Source of the DNA: an uncultured Acidobacteriota bacterium
Lineage (GTDB): Bacteria; Acidobacteriota; Thermoanaerobaculia; Multivoradales; UBA5704
Assembly: GCA_963700145.1 (NCBI GenBank)
Contig: OY969474.1
Location: 3,584,001-3,648,000, forward strand
Direction: 5' to 3'
DNA length: 64,000 bases
Each line of letters begins with the position of its first letter. Positions within the stretch are counted from its first letter, which is position 1. The notes under the pieces were generated by a model that saw nothing but the letters and a program-made list of their open reading frames with translations, did no database searches and was not told where the DNA came from. The translations under genes were made by a program, and so were the position numbers. Shown here piece by piece: positions 56,954 to 64,000 of this stretch.

Positions 56954-57068
56954 GTCATCCCGAGCGAGAGCGAGGGATCTGGGCGGGGGGCGGTGCGTGA
57001 AAGGCGCGGGTCCAGAAGGTGTCCGCGCCACCCCTGCCCCCAGATCCCTCGCTCTCGCTCGGGATGAC
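56954..57068. repeat. GTCATYC-family palindromic repeat pair (copy D)
   Basis: GTCATCCCGAGCGAGAGCGAGGGATCTGGG ... CCCAGATCCCTCGCTCTCGCTCGGGATGAC. Confidence 0.85.
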
Positions 57069-58841
57069 ATGCGAGGCGGGCCGCCGCGGCCCCGGCCCCG
57101 GCTTTTTTCCCACCCGATCTTCCTCGCCCTCCTCCTCGCCCTCCCCCTCTTCGCCTGGGGCATCTCCTGGGGTCTCCCCAGCCGCCTCGGCTGGGCGGGC
57201 GACGAGATCATGCCGCGCGCCGTCGAGCAGGCCGCGCGCCGCGGCTTCGCCGGCGGCTGGCACACCAAGTACCCGCCCGTCCACTACATGGTCCTCGCCG
57301 CCCTCCACGCGCCGGTCCGCGCGCTCGCCGGCGACGACGTCTCGCCCGCCGAGCTCAATCACCGCCTGATCCTCGCCAGCCGCTGGCTCTCGGTCCTGAT
57401 GGCCCTCGGCGCCGTCTGGGCCGTCTACCGCGCGGCGCGCGAGCTGACCGACCGCCGCGGCGCCGCCCTCGCCGCCCTCGCCGTCGCGCTCGCGCCGCCC
57501 TTCGTCTACTTCGCCAAGACCGCCAACCCCGAGATGCCGATGCTCTTCTGGCTGGCGCTCTCCCTTTGGCTCTACCTCCGCGTCCTCCGCCGCCACCGCC
57601 TGCGCGACTGGCTCCTCCTCGCCGCCACTGCCGCACTCGCCGTCGGCTCCAAAGACCAGGCCTACGGCTTCTACCTCCTTGCTCCCCTCGCCCTCCTCCC
57701 CTCCCTAGCCCGCCACCGCCGCGCCGAAGGCAAGCCCGGCGGCCCAAGCACCCTCCTCGACCGCCGCGTCCTCCTAGCCGTCGCCGCCGGCCTCGTCGCC
57801 TTCGCTCTAGCCTTCAATCTGCCGGCGAACTGGCAAGGCTTCCAGCGCCATCTCAACACCCTAACCGGCGCCGGCGCCGCCTCCGAAGAGGCCCAGGAGT
57901 ACCCAGCCACCGTAGCCGGCCACCTAGCCAACCTGACCCAGAACCTCCGCCACCTGGTTTTCTGCCTAGGTGGGCCCCTCTTCGTCCTGACCGTGGCAGG
58001 CGCCGCCTTCGCCCTAGCCCGCCCCCGCGACCCGAGTCACCGCCGTCTCCTAGCCCTCCTCCTCCTAAGCCTCTCCTACACCGCCACCTTCCTAGCCCCT
58101 ATCCTTTTCAGCCGCGACCGCTACACCCTCCCGCTAGCCCTAGTCCTAACCCCCTGCGCCGGCGCACTTCTCACGCGCCTCCTCGCCAAGTCCCGCGGCT
58201 CAACTCACTACCTCCTCGCCGCCGCCCTGACCATCGTCTTCGCCTGGAGCGCCCTCCGCGCTGTCTCCGTCAACCGCCGCATGACCCACGACTCCCGCTA
58301 CCAAGCCGAGACCTGGCTCTCCACCCACCCCGGCCGCCCCATCGCCATAGGCCGCCCCAAACACGTCCCCCGCATCGCCCGCGTCGATTGGCGCAAAGTC
58401 CACCGCGCAGAAAACGCCCGGCACGTAGGCCGGGCGCTACGCAACGCCGACTACATCGTCATCAACGTAACCGACCTCCGCACCCCAGCCGAGCGACGCG
58501 TCTACGAAGAACTCCTCTCCGGCAACCTCGGCTACCACCTAGCCCATCGCTTCCGTTGGACCTCGAAGTGGGACGTCCTCTCAACGCGATGTGTCCTCAG
58601 CACCCTCGACCTGGTGAACCCGCACCTAGCCGTTTTTTCCAGGCAGGAGAAAACGGTGCCGGGCGGTTCGCGGGGTGCTCCTCCGGGGAGCTCTTCGCAA
58701 GCGCCGGCAATGTTCCTCGCAGGCCGCAGTCGATCCGGCGCGCAGCGAAGCGCAGCCGCGCGCCTCCCCGCGGCAGTCCTCTTGGCGCGCGGCGGTCCCC
58801 GGAGGAGCACCCCGCGAACCGCCCTCTCGCTAACCCCTTAG
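57069..58841 (+). CDS. ArnT/PMT-like (GT-C) membrane glycosyltransferase
   Basis: WGLP..WAGDE, YPPVHY, multiple TMs, RDRYTLPL; 3' end runs through a structured repeat. Confidence 0.8.
   Translation: MRGGPPRPRPRLFSHPIFLALLLALPLFAWGISWGLPSRLGWAGDEIMPRAVEQAARRGFAGGWHTKYPPVHYMVLAALHAPVRALAGDDVSPAELNHRLILASRWLSVLMALGAVWAVYRAARELTDRRGAALAALAVALAPPFVYFAKTANPEMPMLFWLALSLWLYLRVLRRHRLRDWLLLAATAALAVGSKDQAYGFYLLAPLALLPSLARHRRAEGKPGGPSTLLDRRVLLAVAAGLVAFALAFNLPANWQGFQRHLNTLTGAGAASEEAQEYPATVAGHLANLTQNLRHLVFCLGGPLFVLTVAGAAFALARPRDPSHRRLLALLLLSLSYTATFLAPILFSRDRYTLPLALVLTPCAGALLTRLLAKSRGSTHYLLAAALTIVFAWSALRAVSVNRRMTHDSRYQAETWLSTHPGRPIAIGRPKHVPRIARVDWRKVHRAENARHVGRALRNADYIVINVTDLRTPAERRVYEELLSGNLGYHLAHRFRWTSKWDVLSTRCVLSTLDLVNPHLAVFSRQEKTVPGGSRGAPPGSSSQAPAMFLAGRSRSGAQRSAAARLPAAVLLARGGPRRSTPRTALSLTP
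58661..58824. repeat. 164-bp multi-stem element with perfect 29-bp terminal inverted repeat (copy 1)
   Basis: 58661-58689 is the exact reverse complement of 58796-58824; internal stems and GCGAAGC. Confidence 0.85.
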
Positions 58842-59575
58842 AGGAAGAGCCCCTGAATGGTCCCTTGGATTTCTTTCGCTTTTTGGTAGGGATCAGAAGC
58901 CTTCCGAATCGGCCGCCCCACCACGATGTAATCCGCCCCCGACAAAAACGCCTCCTCCACGCTAACCACCCGCTTCTGGTCATCCACAGCCCGGTTCTCC
59001 ACCGGCCGAATCCCCGGCACAACAACCAGAAGCTTCTCCCCAAGCTCCTCCCGCAGAGCCCGAGCCTCCAACCCAGAAGCCACCACCCCATCACACCCGA
59101 TCGCCAACGCCCGCCGCGCCCGCGACAACACCAACTCCTCCACGTCCACCCGAAACCCCAGATCCTCCAGGTCCCCCCGATCCAAGCTAGTCAGCGCCGT
59201 AACCGCCAGCACCTTCAACCCCTCCCCCCGCTCCCGGCAAGCCGCCTCCAGCATCCCGTCGTTCCCGTGCACCGTCGTCAGCGCGATCCCCCGCCCCGCC
59301 AGCCGCCGCACCGCCGCCCCCACCGTCTCCGGCACGTCGAACAGCTTGAAATCCGCGAACACCTTCGCGCCGCGCCCGTGCAGCCAGTCGATCAGCGCGA
59401 ACGCCTCGCCCGTCATGAACAGCTCCAGCCCCACCTTGTAGAACGACACAGCCTCGCGCAACGTCTCGACGAGCCGCCGCGCCTCCGCCACTTCGGGCAC
59501 GTCGAGGGCGAAGATCAACCGCTCTTCGGGGGGGATCTCCTTGGTCGAGAGGAAGTGCGGATCGGGCGCGCTCAC
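58838..59575 (-). CDS. pyrF: Orotidine-5'-phosphate decarboxylase
   Basis: RLIFALD, YKVGLELF, DFKLFDVPETV (DxKxxD), VPGIRP, DDQKR, VVGRPI. Confidence 0.95.
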   Translation of the reverse strand: MSAPDPHFLSTKEIPPEERLIFALDVPEVAEARRLVETLREAVSFYKVGLELFMTGEAFALIDWLHGRGAKVFADFKLFDVPETVGAAVRRLAGRGIALTTVHGNDGMLEAACRERGEGLKVLAVTALTSLDRGDLEDLGFRVDVEELVLSRARRALAIGCDGVVASGLEARALREELGEKLLVVVPGIRPVENRAVDDQKRVVSVEEAFLSGADYIVVGRPIRKASDPYQKAKEIQGTIQGLFL

Positions 59576-59581
59576 GGCCCG

Positions 59582-61393
59582 CTAGGCTAGCAGCCGCGCC
59601 AGGTGCCCGGGGTCCACCGGCTTCGTCAGGTGCAGGTCGAAGCCCGCCTCGCGCGAGCGGCGGCGGTCCTCGTCGCGGCCGTAGCCGGTCACCGCGATGA
59701 GCCGCGCGTCGCGCGTCGTCGGGTCGCGCCGCAGCTCCTTCGCCACCGCGAAGCCGTCCATGCCGGGGAGCCCGAGGTCGCAGAGCACCACCTCCGGATG
59801 GAAGCGGCGCGCCGCCTCGACCCCCGCCGAGCCGTCGTAGGCGAGCGCCACCTTGTGACCGGAGAGCACCAGGAAGTCGCGCAGCGTGGCCGCCGCGTCC
59901 GGGTTGTCCTCGACCACCAGGATCCGCCGCGCGTGCCGCTCCTGCTCGGCCGGCCGCTCCGCCGCCGCCGCCGGCTCCGCGGCTTCGACCGGCAGCAGCA
60001 TCGTGAACTCCGCGCCGCGCCCCAGGCCCTCGCTCCGCACATCGACCTCGCCGCCGTGCAGCTCGACGAGCCCCTTCGCCACCGCCAGCCCCACCCCGAG
60101 GCCGCCCTTCGTCCGCTCCAGGCTGTGGTCGGCCTGGGTGAACGGCTCGAAGACGTGCGGCAGGATCTCCGGTCCGATGCCCATGCCGGTGTCGCGCACC
60201 ACGACCGCGGCGCGCCGGCCGCCGCCGTCGCGCGCCACCCGCACCGTCACACGGCCGCCGGCGCCGGTGAACTTGGCGGCGTTGCGCAGCAGCTTTTCGA
60301 GCGCCTGGCCGAGCCGCGCCCGGTCGCCCTGCACACCCAGCCGCTCGCGCGGCAGGTCCAGCGAGACGGTCAGCCCGGCCGCCTCCAGCGCCGGCCGCTC
60401 CCGCTCGACCGCGGCGCGCACCAGCTCCACCAGCTCGAGCGGCTCGCAATGCAGCTCGACCTCGCCGCGCGTCACCCGCTCCACCTCGAGCAGGTCGTCC
60501 ACCAGGGCGGCCTGGTGGCGCACCTGCCGCTCGGCGGTCTCGAGCGCCCGCCGCCGGGTCGGGTCGCCTTCCGAGCCGCTCAGCCGCAGCACCTGCAGGG
60601 CGTTGCTGATCGTCCCCAGCGGGTTGCGCAGCTCGTGCGCCAGCATCGCCAGGAACTCCTCCTGCCGCCGCTCGGCGCGCGCCAGGGCCGCGCGGTGCTC
60701 GGCCAGCCGCTCCTTCACCTCCTCGAGCTTGCGCTCGATGGCGCCCGCCCGCTCGAGCTGCTCCAGCATCCAGGCGGCACCGTCCTCGGGCGCGGCGTTG
60801 CCAAGCACCATCTCCGCCGGCTCGTAGTAGAAGTTGGCGCAGAGGCGGCGGCCGATCAGCGCCAGCGGGTGGGTGCGGAGGGCGCCGGTCTGGGTCTCGG
60901 GGGGGAAGCGGGAGAGGTCGTACTGGCAAAGGACGATGGCGAGGCTGTGCTCGACGAAGCGGTGGAGCCGCGCCTCGTAGCCGAGGAGCGGCGCCGCCGC
61001 GCCGGCGTCGAGCGGCGCGCCCCCCGACGAGGCGCCGATCACCCAGGCCAGGTCGATCGCCAGCCGCAGGCCGGGACGGCCGTCCTCGACGGCCTGTTGC
61101 TCGCACTGCCGGAGGAGGTCGAGGAGGGCGCCCGGGTCGAACCGGCCGCGGCCCTGGAGGTCGGGGTGGCTGTGGAGCGGGACCCAGCTGCCGTCGGCGG
61201 AGCCGGCGAGCCCGAGCTCCTGCTCGACGCGCCGGCAGTCGGCCTCGGCGGCGAGCAGGACGCAGCGCTCGCCGGCCGCCAAGCCTCCCTTGAAGAAGGC
61301 CACCTGCGCCGCGCGCTGCTCGGCGGCGCGCCGGAACATCTGGCAGAGGTGATCGCCCCGGCGCAGCCGTGCGATCCTGGTCTCGAGGTCCAA
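59582..61393 (-). CDS. MEDS-domain hybrid sensor histidine kinase with receiver domain
   Basis: GDHLC, LCQYD..THP MEDS; LAHELRNPL, NAAKFT, DTGMGI, GLGVGL; REC VVEDN..CDLGLP..KP; TTG start. Confidence 0.9.
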   Translation of the reverse strand: MDLETRIARLRRGDHLCQMFRRAAEQRAAQVAFFKGGLAAGERCVLLAAEADCRRVEQELGLAGSADGSWVPLHSHPDLQGRGRFDPGALLDLLRQCEQQAVEDGRPGLRLAIDLAWVIGASSGGAPLDAGAAAPLLGYEARLHRFVEHSLAIVLCQYDLSRFPPETQTGALRTHPLALIGRRLCANFYYEPAEMVLGNAAPEDGAAWMLEQLERAGAIERKLEEVKERLAEHRAALARAERRQEEFLAMLAHELRNPLGTISNALQVLRLSGSEGDPTRRRALETAERQVRHQAALVDDLLEVERVTRGEVELHCEPLELVELVRAAVERERPALEAAGLTVSLDLPRERLGVQGDRARLGQALEKLLRNAAKFTGAGGRVTVRVARDGGGRRAAVVVRDTGMGIGPEILPHVFEPFTQADHSLERTKGGLGVGLAVAKGLVELHGGEVDVRSEGLGRGAEFTMLLPVEAAEPAAAAERPAEQERHARRILVVEDNPDAAATLRDFLVLSGHKVALAYDGSAGVEAARRFHPEVVLCDLGLPGMDGFAVAKELRRDPTTRDARLIAVTGYGRDEDRRRSREAGFDLHLTKPVDPGHLARLLA

Positions 61394-61687
61394 CGTCCAC
61401 CCCCCGTGAGGGAGGGGTTGCCTTGCGCCGCGGGACTTCGTAGTGGCAACCCCTGGTGCGTTCCCGCGACGCAGGGAGCCAGGGGTGCAAGAACTGTGCG
61501 CGCCGGAAGTCGCGCAGACAGCGTGCTTTGGGCGGCACGCGGCATGCGGTGCGCAGCGCCGGGGGCGGCCCAAGCCAAGTCCCGTCGCGTGAGCGATTTG
61601 ACGGGGGGCGCCCTCGCGCCCTAGAACGCCATTTATTGCTTGACAGAGCGCTGCATCACTGGCTAGAGTTGCCGCAGGTGACGACAA

Positions 61688-63040
61688 GTGACGCGTGAGC
61701 GGCACCCGCCGCGCGAGGACCTCGAGCGCTTCCTGCGCGGCGAGCTGACGGCGGCCGAGAGCAAGGGCCTGGTCCGCCACCTCCTCGCCGGCTGCGCCGA
61801 CTGCCTCGGCGAGACGCGGCGCCTCTGGGGCGGCCGGCGGGGCGCGGCCGGCGCACCGGAGAGCGCGGCGCCGCCCGCCGGAGTCTACGGCGAGCTCTTC
61901 CGCAAGCTCTTCGCGCAAGGCCCGGCGCGCGAGGCGGCGGTGGCGCGCGACCTCGAGCGGGCGCCGCGCCTCGCCGCGGACCTCCTCCGCCACCCGCACG
62001 CGCGGCGCCTGACGCTCGTCGCCAACGCCGAGCGCTTCCGCAGCGTCGGCCTCTGCGAGCACCTCCTGGAGTCGGCGGCCGCTCTCTGGCGGGAGGACCC
62101 GCCGGCCAGCGCCGAGCTCGCCGAGGTGGCCGGCGCCGTGGCGCGGCGCCTCGACCCGCGCTGCGCCGGGCCGTCGCTCGCCGCCAGCCTCGAGGGGCGG
62201 GCCTGGGCCTACCGCGGCAACGCCCTGCGCCTCGCAGGCGACTTCGCCGTCGCCGAGGAGGCGCTGGCCCGCGCCGAGCCGCTCGTCGAGCACGGCAGCG
62301 GCGACCCGCTGGAGCGCGCCGAGCTCCACGCCCTGCGCGCCGCCCTCGCCGCCGACCGCGGCCGCCCCGCCGCCGCCCTCGCCCTCTACGACCGCGCCGC
62401 CCAGCTCTACCGCGCCCTCGCCGAGCGCCACGCCCTCGGCCGCACCCTGCTCGAAAAGAGCGCCGTCCCCGCGCCCGCCCTCGCCGAGGCGGCGCGCCTC
62501 GCCCTCCTGCGCGAGGGTGTCGGCCTCCTCGACGACCGCCTAGAGCCCCACCTCGCCGCCGCCGCCCACCACCGCCTAGTCGCCGGCCTCTTAGACGCCG
62601 GCCACCCCGGCGAGGCCCTCCTCTACCTCCAGAAAGCCCGGCTCCTCGACCGCAAGCAGGGCGACCGCGCAGGCCTCCTCCGCCTCCTGCGCCTGGAAGG
62701 CAAGATCGCCGAATCCCTGGACCGCCCCGAAGACGCCGAGCGCCTCCTCCTAGAAGCCTGGATCGGCCTCGTCGGCCTCAAGCTCGGCCAAGACGCCGCC
62801 ACCGTCACCCTCGACCTCGCCCGCCTCTACGCCCGCAACGGCCGCATCGCCGAGGCCCGCGGCTTGGCCCTCAAACTCTCCCCCCTCTTCCACGCCGAGG
62901 GCCTAGACCGCGGCGCCATCGTCGGCCTAGTCGTCCTCCGCCGCCTCCTGGAGACCGAATCCGCCAGCCCCCAGTTCCTAGCCGAGCTAGTCGGTTACTT
63001 CCGCCGCCCAACCCCGGCGCAGCTCCGCCAAGCCAGCTAA
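61688..63040 (+). CDS. TPR-repeat protein with N-terminal zf-HC2-like motif
   Basis: HP....LERF..HLLAGCADC; AWAYRGNALRLAGD helical repeats. Confidence 0.75.
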   Translation: MTRERHPPREDLERFLRGELTAAESKGLVRHLLAGCADCLGETRRLWGGRRGAAGAPESAAPPAGVYGELFRKLFAQGPAREAAVARDLERAPRLAADLLRHPHARRLTLVANAERFRSVGLCEHLLESAAALWREDPPASAELAEVAGAVARRLDPRCAGPSLAASLEGRAWAYRGNALRLAGDFAVAEEALARAEPLVEHGSGDPLERAELHALRAALAADRGRPAAALALYDRAAQLYRALAERHALGRTLLEKSAVPAPALAEAARLALLREGVGLLDDRLEPHLAAAAHHRLVAGLLDAGHPGEALLYLQKARLLDRKQGDRAGLLRLLRLEGKIAESLDRPEDAERLLLEAWIGLVGLKLGQDAATVTLDLARLYARNGRIAEARGLALKLSPLFHAEGLDRGAIVGLVVLRRLLETESASPQFLAELVGYFRRPTPAQLRQAS

Positions 63041-63067
63041 CAGGTCTTTGGATGCTGGGTGGGGGAA

Positions 63068-63232
63068 GCCCGGGGGTCGGGTGCCCCCGGCGGGAACCTC
63101 TGAGCGAGCGCCGGGCAACGCCCGCTGCATTCGACATCGACCCCGGCGCAAAGCGAAGCGGAGGCGCGAGCCCACCCCCCGCAATCCACAAGGCTCGCGC
63201 CGGTTCCCGCCGGGGGCACCCGACCCCCGGGC
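63068..63232. repeat. 165-bp multi-stem element with perfect 31-bp terminal inverted repeat (copy 2)
   Basis: 63068-63098 is the exact reverse complement of 63202-63232; same internal architecture as copy 1. Confidence 0.85.
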
Positions 63233-63258
63233 GGGGCGGGGGGTCTTAGTTCCTTATC

Positions 63259-64000
63259 TCAGCCGGCCTGCTTCTTCTCCCACTCCTCCTTAGTCATCCA
63301 CTCCACCACCCCCCGCTTCTTGAGCTCCTCCGCCCGCGCAAACCCCGCCTCCAACCGCCCCTCCAGCACCTCAGCAAGCTCCACCTGCGACTGCGTAGGC
63401 CTCCCCTCGTAACTGTTCACCGCCCCGTACAGCAACCCCAACTTCTCCCGCAACTGCTCCTCCCCCGACAACCACCCCCCCGCCGACGTCGCCACCAGCT
63501 CCTTCCGCAGCCCCTCCCAATCCGCCGCCAGCTTCGTCGCCTTCTTCTTGTCCGCCTGCTCCTTGGCGTCCGTCACCGCGTCCGCCAGGTACGTCAGCCG
63601 CCCGAGCATCTCGTAGAGCCGCCACACCAGCTTCTCCTGCTCCTTGCGGTCCGCGTCGGCGTGGCGTGACCGCGGGTCGGCCACCAGCTCCACCTTCCCC
63701 GGGTACGTCTGGTCCCCCTTGACCACCTTGAACGTGTAGGCGCCGAGCGGCACTCGCGGCCCCAGCATCGCGTAACTGTTGAGCACCAGCGAGTTCGCCG
63801 GCGGCATCTTCGGGGGCTTGGCGCGCATCGGCCAGGACACCCGGTTGATCCCCTTCCGCTTGCCGCCGGGGAGCGTCGTCACCAGCTTCCCGTCGGCGTC
63901 GTAGACCTCGACCTTGAGGTCGCCGAAGAGGTGCCGCTTCTTGAGGTAGTAGACGATCGTCGCCTCCTCCGGCGGGTTGAAGGCCACGAACTCGTCGTCG
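63259..64000 (-). CDS. C-terminus of a large protein, likely BNR/VPS10 glycosyl-hydrolase-like (partial)
   Basis: NPP.EATIVYYL, KGINRVSW, GPRVPLGAY, DPR, PTQSQ; frame open to the window edge. Confidence 0.7.
   Translation of the reverse strand, partial: DDEFVAFNPPEEATIVYYLKKRHLFGDLKVEVYDADGKLVTTLPGGKRKGINRVSWPMRAKPPKMPPANSLVLNSYAMLGPRVPLGAYTFKVVKGDQTYPGKVELVADPRSRHADADRKEQEKLVWRLYEMLGRLTYLADAVTDAKEQADKKKATKLAADWEGLRKELVATSAGGWLSGEEQLREKLGLLYGAVNSYEGRPTQSQVELAEVLEGRLEAGFARAEELKKRGVVEWMTKEEWEKKQAG

Follow-up and report, generated by a model that had tools for sequence, protein, structure and literature searches.

The window analysed here is a stretch of 64,000 nucleotides (64 kb) from an uncultured Acidobacteriota bacterium (assembly GCA_963700145.1, contig OY969474.1), whose genome (G000) is a single contig of 5.46 Mb and 71% GC; G001-G004 are other genomes of the genus. 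The window holds two copies of a three-way-junction repeat of ~165 bp, here named family A, which is present in the window genome as 40 full copies and one half copy (iterated profile search). The genes around these copies are depleted of G at silent sites on the strand that folds. This zone, here called the halo, appears from comparisons of filled and unfilled sites to be caused by the element. A non-coding repeat appears to steer the mutation of neighboring genes.

Both window copies lie on the + strand between convergent open reading frames (ORFs) (Table 1). The arms of copy 1 (58661-58689/58796-58824) pair perfectly over 29 bp, and those of copy 2 (63068-63098/63202-63232), which differ in sequence, pair perfectly over 31 bp, with 29 bp belonging to the closing stem P1 in the family fold. 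None of 200 shuffled sequences folded equally well in either case (z-score -9.2 with RNA parameters for copy 1 and -9.9 with DNA parameters for copy 2). Copy 1 sits inside the 3′ end of ORF 56997-58841 in the window genome, which just before the element reads CAG where G004 reads TAG. The original prediction for this DNA had given the coordinates, the perfect arms of differing sequence, the P3 stem with two compensatory changes, the 3-nt linkers, the GCGAAGC motif and the loop lengths, all of which were confirmed. Its observation that the copies share an orientation and lie at convergent junctions is true of the window pair, but only 8/40 copies of the family are convergent. It had recognized no named family, and Rfam likewise returned no match at gathering level in the 64-kb window, with sub-threshold ones only in 58500-63400.

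Table 1. Coordinates of family A copies, their parts, flanking genes and halos in the window
Feature	Position	Strand	Remarks
Family A copy 1, three-way junction	58661..58824	+	Profile matches, arm pairing, folding
Copy 1 unpaired 5′ foot, ACGGT-type	58653..58660	+	
Copy 1 P1 5′ arm	58661..58689	+	Partner 58796-58824; sequence hypervariable, family length 28 bp
Copy 1 P2 arm	58690..58753	+	2 bp, T·C mismatch, 6-bp helix CTTCGC/GCGAAG, then distal part
Copy 1 P2 distal part	within 58690..58753	+	Internal loop, upper stem, 27-nt loop with GCAG
Copy 1 P3 stem-loop	58755..58793	+	GCAGTCC in loop
Family A copy 2	63068..63232	+	P2 63097-63161 with tandem G·A; P3 63163-63201
PMT-type glycosyltransferase gene, host flank	56997..58841	+	Frame reads through copy 1
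pyrF (orotidine monophosphate decarboxylase), host flank of copy 1	58838..59575	-	
Tetratricopeptide-repeat protein gene, host flank of copy 2	61688..63040	+	
Gene at 3′ flank of copy 2	63259..64000	-	3′ end seen, no firm family there
Copy 1 5′ halo, + strand G-poor at silent sites	57660..58650	+	Score -0.47 (700 bp); outer limit approximate
Copy 1 3′ halo, crosses pyrF (- strand)	58835..59820	+	Score -0.80; outer limit approximate
Copy 2 5′ halo	62070..63060	+	Score -0.65; outer limit approximate
Copy 2 3′ halo, up to window end	63240..64000	+	Score -0.61

Counted outward from the junction, positions 1-28 of P1 are Watson-Crick pairs in at least 35/40 copies, after which the number drops to 20/40 at position 29 and 13/40 at position 30. 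The closing stem is fixed in length (28 bp) and hypervariable in sequence, its arms being the least conserved part of the element. At the 5′ foot, a CGG[T/A] motif precedes 26/40 copies and GGGGGA 7/40. The GCGCCGG/CCGGCGC stem of P2 is present as first described, but P2 is longer: GCGAAG forms the 3′ strand of its lower helix and covaries with an upstream partner, CT[NN]GC, in the combinations GA/GA (20 copies), TC/GA (7), CC/GG (7), GC/GC (2), TG/CA (1), CG/CG (1) and others (2). The earlier proposal of a GCGAAGC mini-hairpin is weakened by this pairing, although 37/40 copies would be compatible with a GNA triloop as a possible alternative fold. Loops are A/C-rich.

The original prediction had called for a genome-wide search for further copies and covariation, and both were found. 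In an alignment of 40 rows (39 window-genome copies and one from G039), 95.6% of cells pair and 33/49 pairs show double changes, with a covariation score of 0.513 versus 0.113 for shuffled and at most 0.09 for slid alignments. Among 106 distinct copies from other genomes, which were fitted to the model and are related to each other, 89.4% of cells pair, 47/49 pairs show double changes and the score is 0.546. The first model (R1) served only for finding copies, and R2 is a later, corrected model. In the inner stems there are three sites where tandem G·A pairs take the place of Watson-Crick pairs (32, 23-30 and 41-42 of the 106 copies). These sites agree in strand, and the strand concerned is thereby identified as the one that folds.

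Covariation of the outer arms requires a different reading. In 24 of 27 orthologous pairs (three were skipped by the parser), P1 held 571 unchanged pairs, 33 compensated doubles, of which 18 were transversions, and 9 singles. The element evolves in place with both arms changing together, and the excess of doubles over singles, with so many transversions, points to arm-to-arm copying. Outer-arm covariation by itself is no evidence of selection, which weakens the earlier suggestion that the structure is under selection; better evidence of constraint comes from the junction, from the G·A swaps and from a stem whose length stays constant. More generally, perfect “covariation” of hairpin arms can arise from copying rather than selection.

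In P1 of the 106 copies, mismatches lean towards purines (AG 72, GG 41 and AA 11 versus CT 8, CC 7 and TT 24) and show no wobble excess (G·T 73 versus A·C 62; in the 40-row alignment, 8 versus 6), which favors DNA over RNA. Based on uncurated gene calls, with doubtful neighbors for two copies, 28/40 copies lie between co-directional genes (14 sense, 14 antisense), 8 between convergent and 4 between divergent genes; taking dnaA as the origin, 24 copies have the element strand leading and 16 have it lagging. Because there is neither a G·T excess nor an orientation bias to genes or forks, the element probably acts as single-stranded DNA (ssDNA). The original idea of a non-autonomous structured element is supported; the element has many more copies and covaries strongly.

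The halo was measured at four-fold degenerate sites. In sense genes, element-strand G drops from 0.41 to 0.15-0.17 within 500 bp of the element; in antisense genes over the same distance, coding-strand C drops from 0.54 to 0.21-0.26. Both declines are seen on either side. The halo is centered on the element and symmetric, stays level out to 600 bp and has vanished by 1-1.4 kb. Its score is negative in 38/40 copies (z -24 versus 2000 random intergenic sets), and each of the two copies without a halo has an opposite-facing copy less than 1 kb away. An explanation by replication strand was rejected, since leading (24) and lagging (16) element strands have the same halo. Of the 50 strongest skew peaks genome-wide, 36 are no more than 1 kb away from family A or from a second family, B (described below), and the strand is correct in 36/36. 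No halo was found at 63 solo SRM repeats, at three sets of GTAG-type repetitive extragenic palindromes (REPs; 65, 13 and 82 copies) or at 70 generic GTAG hairpins. The halo occurs in 5/5 genomes of the genus, where the sense-minus-antisense difference outside the window genome is -0.57 (G004, 31 loci), -0.38 (G001, 20), -0.38 (G003, 17) and -0.20 (G002, 8). Strong skew peaks that lack an intact A or B lie in the window genome at ~4984300, 3981400, 3205300 and 4910000. The one at ~3981400 holds a remnant of B, and the other three may be sites of lost elements.

Comparisons of filled and unfilled sites, made by BLAST projection with paralogues possibly mixed in at two loci, indicate that the element causes the halo. 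Where the element is present in G000 and absent from G004, four-fold differences number 161 C:G versus 87 G:C (9 loci, p 3e-6). Where only G002 carries it, they run in the opposite direction, as predicted (172 versus 100, 5 loci), and where both genomes carry it they number 173 versus 209 (26 loci). Sites filled only in G002 have no halo in G000 (G 0.36-0.50). The skew persists at two element-free sites, that of window copy 2 in G004 (G 0.16) and that of locus L067 in G000 (0.18); outgroups carry the element at both, which makes them sites of loss. Provided that the element is the cause of the halo, a non-coding sequence of 165 bp resets the codon usage of ~2 kb, roughly doubles the amino-acid divergence of housekeeping genes on one side, and leaves traces that show at which places a single DNA strand undergoes processing in vivo.

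Substitutions were polarized with G001/G003, read on the element strand and compared near and far from elements. At four-fold sites, G>C was raised near elements (129/685 versus 181/2367; 0.188/0.076, p 1e-15), as was C>A (67/2814 versus 16/2710; 0.024/0.006, p 2e-8), mostly before G; at two-fold sites, G>A was raised (66/616 versus 44/1061; 0.107/0.041, p 4e-7). Four-fold C>T was unchanged (0.030/0.030), four-fold C>G was 0.049/0.061, and no narrow sequence context was found. In a flux test the near/far ratio of C>G was 0.56 (0.45-0.71) against G004, 0.99 (0.73-1.40) against G001 and 0.84 (0.56-1.42) against G003, and G>C ratios were 2.3-3.9.

The two flanks differ in divergence. Against G004, divergence of the 5′ kilobase exceeds that of the 3′ kilobase in 25/25 loci (0.080 versus 0.042; 1/26 loci was without sites), and the same holds in 12/15 loci against G001 and 8/10 against G003. 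Coding divergence on the 5′ side is about twice background, codon positions 1-2 included (0.055 and 0.046 versus a background of 0.025 against G004), and on the 3′ side these positions stand at 0.025 and 0.014 versus 0.028, with both gene orientations agreeing. With divergence raised on one side only, the 5′ side is hypermutable and the 3′ side is skewed but quiet.

We favor, with moderate confidence, a long-lived non-autonomous intergenic DNA element that serves as a recurrent strand-specific processing site, where the folded strand would be repeatedly cut or peeled and its flanks resected and refilled. One strand would be extruded and fold into the three-way junction with its 28-bp closing stem, a putative enzyme would cut or peel out the folded strand, and ~0.6-1 kb of that strand on each side would be removed and re-made from the intact opposite strand. 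Such resynthesis would restore the element, which could explain its persistence, and fold-back priming would copy one P1 arm from the other. The exposed template may be damaged (C deamination, abasic sites, oxidized G) or copied inaccurately; MutS would then miss C placed opposite C, A opposite G, and A opposite C or U, and these would end up as G>C, C>A and G>A, respectively. Should the element strand be the new or incoming one, G>C and C>A would stem from C·C and A·G mispairs, and the same changes would follow from deaminated, abasic or oxidized bases on the exposed opposite strand. For Escherichia coli MutS, C:C has been reported to be corrected very poorly, G:G most efficiently and A:G in a context-dependent manner (PMC3167615). 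G:C>C:G transversions in Caulobacter are reported to depend on ImuBC (PMC3901139), and ImuC is described as having only minor effects on spontaneous mutation spectra (PMC7198004).

Several results weigh against this interpretation. Homologous elements in the well-sampled genomes of other families have no halo: the sense-minus-antisense difference is 0.00 in genus g18 (31 loci), +0.02 in G039 (22), 0.00 in G060 (10) and -0.04 in G058 (9), and it is 0.00 in G173 (4). The fold alone is therefore insufficient, and age by itself does not account for the contrast, since the copies of G060, the most diverged within their own genome, have no halo either. G055 is uninformative, with -0.13 near and -0.15 far, and L189, G142 and G034 each give a hint of a halo from a single locus. 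Among the filled/unfilled loci, 2/9 and 1/5 run opposite to the trend. Four-fold G>A is not significantly raised (0.039/0.030, p 0.22), the outcome of the flux test is intermediate between mutation alone and fixation bias alone, and the 3′ side is skewed, yet its divergence is not above background. Nearest-neighbor DNA energies favor the reverse strand in 31/40 copies; the nearest-neighbor model undervalues sheared G·A pairs. No cutting or mobilizing enzyme was identified in searches that covered Y1, Y2, REP-associated tyrosine transposase (RAYT), HUH motifs, RT (reverse transcriptase), IS110, and the genes between paired copies, and the correlation with the candidate host factor UdgX, given below, amounts to one lineage contrast.

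Part of this evidence could be accommodated by strand-biased gene conversion, in which the element would release or guide its own strand and flank as an invading strand, C·C or A·G heteroduplexes would escape repair and G·G be rejected, fixation would run towards C and A, and the 3′ flank would be homogenized between lineages. The lowered C>G against G004 fits such a process, as do the 3′ flank being the less diverged in every locus compared with G004, its below-background values at codon positions 1-2 and at C/T third positions (0.022-0.023 versus 0.048 background), the reported mismatch hierarchy of MutS (PMC3167615) and a report that SsnA/NTS modulates Neisseria transformation (PMC11893778). 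Conversion nevertheless leaves the doubled 5′ divergence unexplained, the G>C ratios exceed the 1.6-2.1 predicted by pure fixation bias, and no transfer gene recurs beside the elements (141 neighbor proteins), so that we regard it as unlikely while taking it seriously. Selection might instead keep the flanks G-poor and unstructured to let a host-useful ssDNA or RNA structure fold, for example a priming or protein-loading site. G is indeed lost by any silent route (G>C at four-fold, G>A at two-fold sites), rates on the 3′ side are near the fixation-bias prediction, and the element is retained at orthologous sites across the genus. Against this stand the 5′ divergence at amino-acid-changing positions, the four-fold rise in C>A, the halo-free copies with the same fold in other families and the free loss or replacement of copies; we consider it improbable.

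A structured non-coding RNA gene or retro-element, with transcription or R-loops exposing one strand, is marginally less probable again. All helices covary, loops are A/C-rich, and ribosomal-protein genes show a mild G excess on the coding strand, but P1 has no wobble preference, sense and antisense copies are equally frequent between co-directional genes, the halo is two-sided, and the three reverse transcriptase (RT) genes lie away from the copies, the one examined being retron-like. As for an inert element that inserts into regions already skewed, the skew at the two element-free sites would suit it; these are losses, however, and the absence of a halo in G000 at G002-only sites and the centered, symmetric form of the halo have already largely refuted it, leaving it very improbable.

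For the processing-site interpretation, a genus-confined host factor would make the process visible, one candidate being UdgX together with ImuABC. In ssDNA, UdgX captures abasic sites, and it promotes C>G. A UdgX-family protein scored above cut-off in 4/5 genus genomes (it was not found in G001, which is 81% complete) and in 0/16 other element-bearing genomes, and the genus genomes tested have four UDG-family genes versus one or two in other families. The host also encodes MutS, DinB, ImuA/B and DnaE2. MutS, an ImuB-like protein and a second DnaE occur in halo-free genomes too, and MutS, DinB/ImuB, DnaE2 and Fpg were rejected as the halo determinant because each, present in 5/5 genomes per search, does not separate the lineages. 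A stand-alone UdgX-family gene lies at L381:1353-1985. We suggest, tentatively and with less assurance than for the processing site itself, that these repeats represent a new class of cis-acting mutator, in which a folded ssDNA signal, a putative enzyme and host UdgX/ImuABC would bring about RT-free strand-specific 5′ diversification, strand-biased 3′ replacement and copy-out spread, with families A, B and C (the last two described below) as substrates of one system.

Family A was found only in one order of Thermoanaerobaculia. R1 matched 15/61 genomes, among them the remaining 4/4 of the genus and 10 from other families, and 0/32 other genomes of the same family. R2 matched 27/151 genomes of the class, all in one order of Thermoanaerobaculia, and 4/151 genomes of the phylum; copy numbers in relatives come from model scans (48 or 19 candidates scored per genome) and are minimum figures. 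When 185,579 species genomes were scanned for the pattern, 81 stretches emerged, and all of the 80 listed belong to Thermoanaerobaculia or Acidobacteria. Viral contigs, plasmids (PLSDB) and phage records gave no family A match. Most sites are common to relatives and kept at orthologous positions across the genus, and the element has been gained and lost at intergenic sites. The original prediction had proposed a comparison of empty sites, and several sites proved empty, deleted or replaced; no target duplication was visible on reading filled and unfilled sites. Neighboring genes span all functional kinds, no family recurs among them (71 + 70 proteins), and toxin-antitoxin-like and efflux genes lie between paired copies. 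A head-to-head pair at L026:1988-2408 (G000 4081063/4081291) is kept in G002, G003 and G004, and in G000 the right arm of one of its copies is replaced by a GTAG REP. Tandem or clustered arrays that include flanks occur at L084:4850-5760 (G055, period ~327 bp), L324 (G033) and L337 (G161).

Among known systems, family A works like a REP-type repeat but comes out negative in the tests for REP-RAYT, MITE (miniature inverted-repeat transposable element), IS91, bridge-RNA and diversity-generating retroelement (DGR) systems. It resembles REPs and REPINs in being dispersed, intergenic, multicopy palindromic DNA that is inherited vertically, has a 5′ foot left unpaired, shows no target duplication and is targeted by IS110. 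REPs are hairpins of 20-40 bp whose GTAG foot is fixed and which often form inverted doublets, a description that family A, with its ~165-bp three-way junction, constant-length hypervariable stem and variable foot, does not match; nor was a RAYT flanked by it found, and the GTAG REPs of the window genome have no halo. The REP foot is given as GTAG, GGAG or GAAG in some subfamilies, and among the GTAG, CGTC and TIR repeats described in the available text of PMC3733652 none has the family A form. A classical MITE was rejected on account of the poorly conserved arms and the lack of a visible target duplication. These findings bear on the persistence of REP-like repeats and their cost to hosts.

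The suggested link to HUH or RAYT enzymes was not borne out. No Y1, Y2 or RAYT gene was found in the window genome, Y1 (PF01797) is absent from the five genus genomes, G039 and G058, and the one RAYT (NF047646) among the five genus genomes is flanked by a different, GTAG-type REP. Thirty Y1 loci held no full R2 match, and an HUH-motif scan of six frames found none. Y2 of IS91 (PF04986) is absent from G000, G001, G003 and G004, and 30 Y2 loci had no A, B or C match. A non-autonomous IS91/ISCR element, considered owing to CAAG at the right end of the C-B composite described below, was dropped, no Y2 with matching ends being found.

The closest tie of family A is to Ssn/SRM. A CTGAGC...GCGAAG helix in its P2 matches the SRM hairpin, an SRM lies within 110 bp of 15/40 copies, and the window genome has 185 SRMs and an SRM-ssn-SRM cassette at genome positions 2172797-2173072. 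SRMs differ in being simple hairpins without a halo. Ssn homologues were found in 6/15 element-bearing genomes and four others; no ssn flanked on both sides by family A was found, the ssn loci being flanked by SRMs, with an A-like copy adjoining one in 1/10 genomes with an Ssn match. In G034 (L187:700-2870), three tandem SRM-ssn-SRM units are followed by an A-like element. SsnA is reported to cut ssDNA, not double-stranded DNA or RNA, near its own hairpin and on one strand only (PMC11893778). ssDNA more complex than a hairpin is described as a rare case (PMC5737381).

DGRs likewise tie a cis element to local, base-biased hypermutation. Family A differs in having no template/variable repeat pair and no linked RT, in G rather than A as target base, and in a zone of ~2 kb of housekeeping genes on both sides. 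An association with RTs had been suggested earlier, and the three RT genes of the genome (L144, L145 and L146, 531-558 aa) are not near a copy, nor is an RT among the 141 neighbor proteins; by sequence reading, L144 looks retron-like with a C-terminal protease-like domain. Kataegis and related clusters of ssDNA damage in eukaryotes are strand-coordinated C>G and C>T changes on one strand over ~1 kb. The halo shares the strand coordination and the scale but is anchored on a repeat, builds over evolutionary time and has no narrow context. The bridge RNA of IS110 and the seekRNA of IS1111 are similar to family A in size and have two arms with variable loop segments. A guide function of the loops was rejected, because loop segments did not match their own flanks (7.64 versus 7.56 nt). 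The only adjacent IS110 (L095:880-2680, G058) lies inside a tandem P1 arm copy beside a family A copy, which makes the repeat an IS110 target. In the literature, with subscription journals largely outside the search, no report of family A or of a repeat-anchored strand-specific halo in bacteria was found.

The halo offers a sequence-only way to find such elements and date their loss, and it revealed family B, a second multi-stem family found by an unbiased scan of skew peaks. B has 20 full copies and shares GCAGTCCAC and GCGAAGC with family A; the element and its composites lie at L385:252-815, at L386:652-823 and at about 20 sites in G000. Its four solo copies have a halo of -0.63/-0.64, and the 16 copies in composite with a third element, C, show -0.01/-0.25. 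The composites, of 440-600 bp, consist of C, an optional SRM doublet and B, have no terminal inverted repeats and are often followed by CAAG at the right end; they are present in G001, G003, G004 and metagenome contigs, and no autonomous form was found. SRMs appear to be later insertions into the composite. Youth of the composites was discarded as an explanation for their missing halo, since several are at orthologous sites in G004; the opposite-facing C half may cancel it.

Other repeats also occur near copy 1 in the window. A GTAG-type REP (family D, 70 copies) lies at 58415-58440 (- strand) within the glycosyltransferase ORF; none of its RAYT was found in the window genome, and the family D RAYT survives in G002 (L371). 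An inverted doublet of CGTC/SRM repeats (Ssn-type) is located at 56954-57068.

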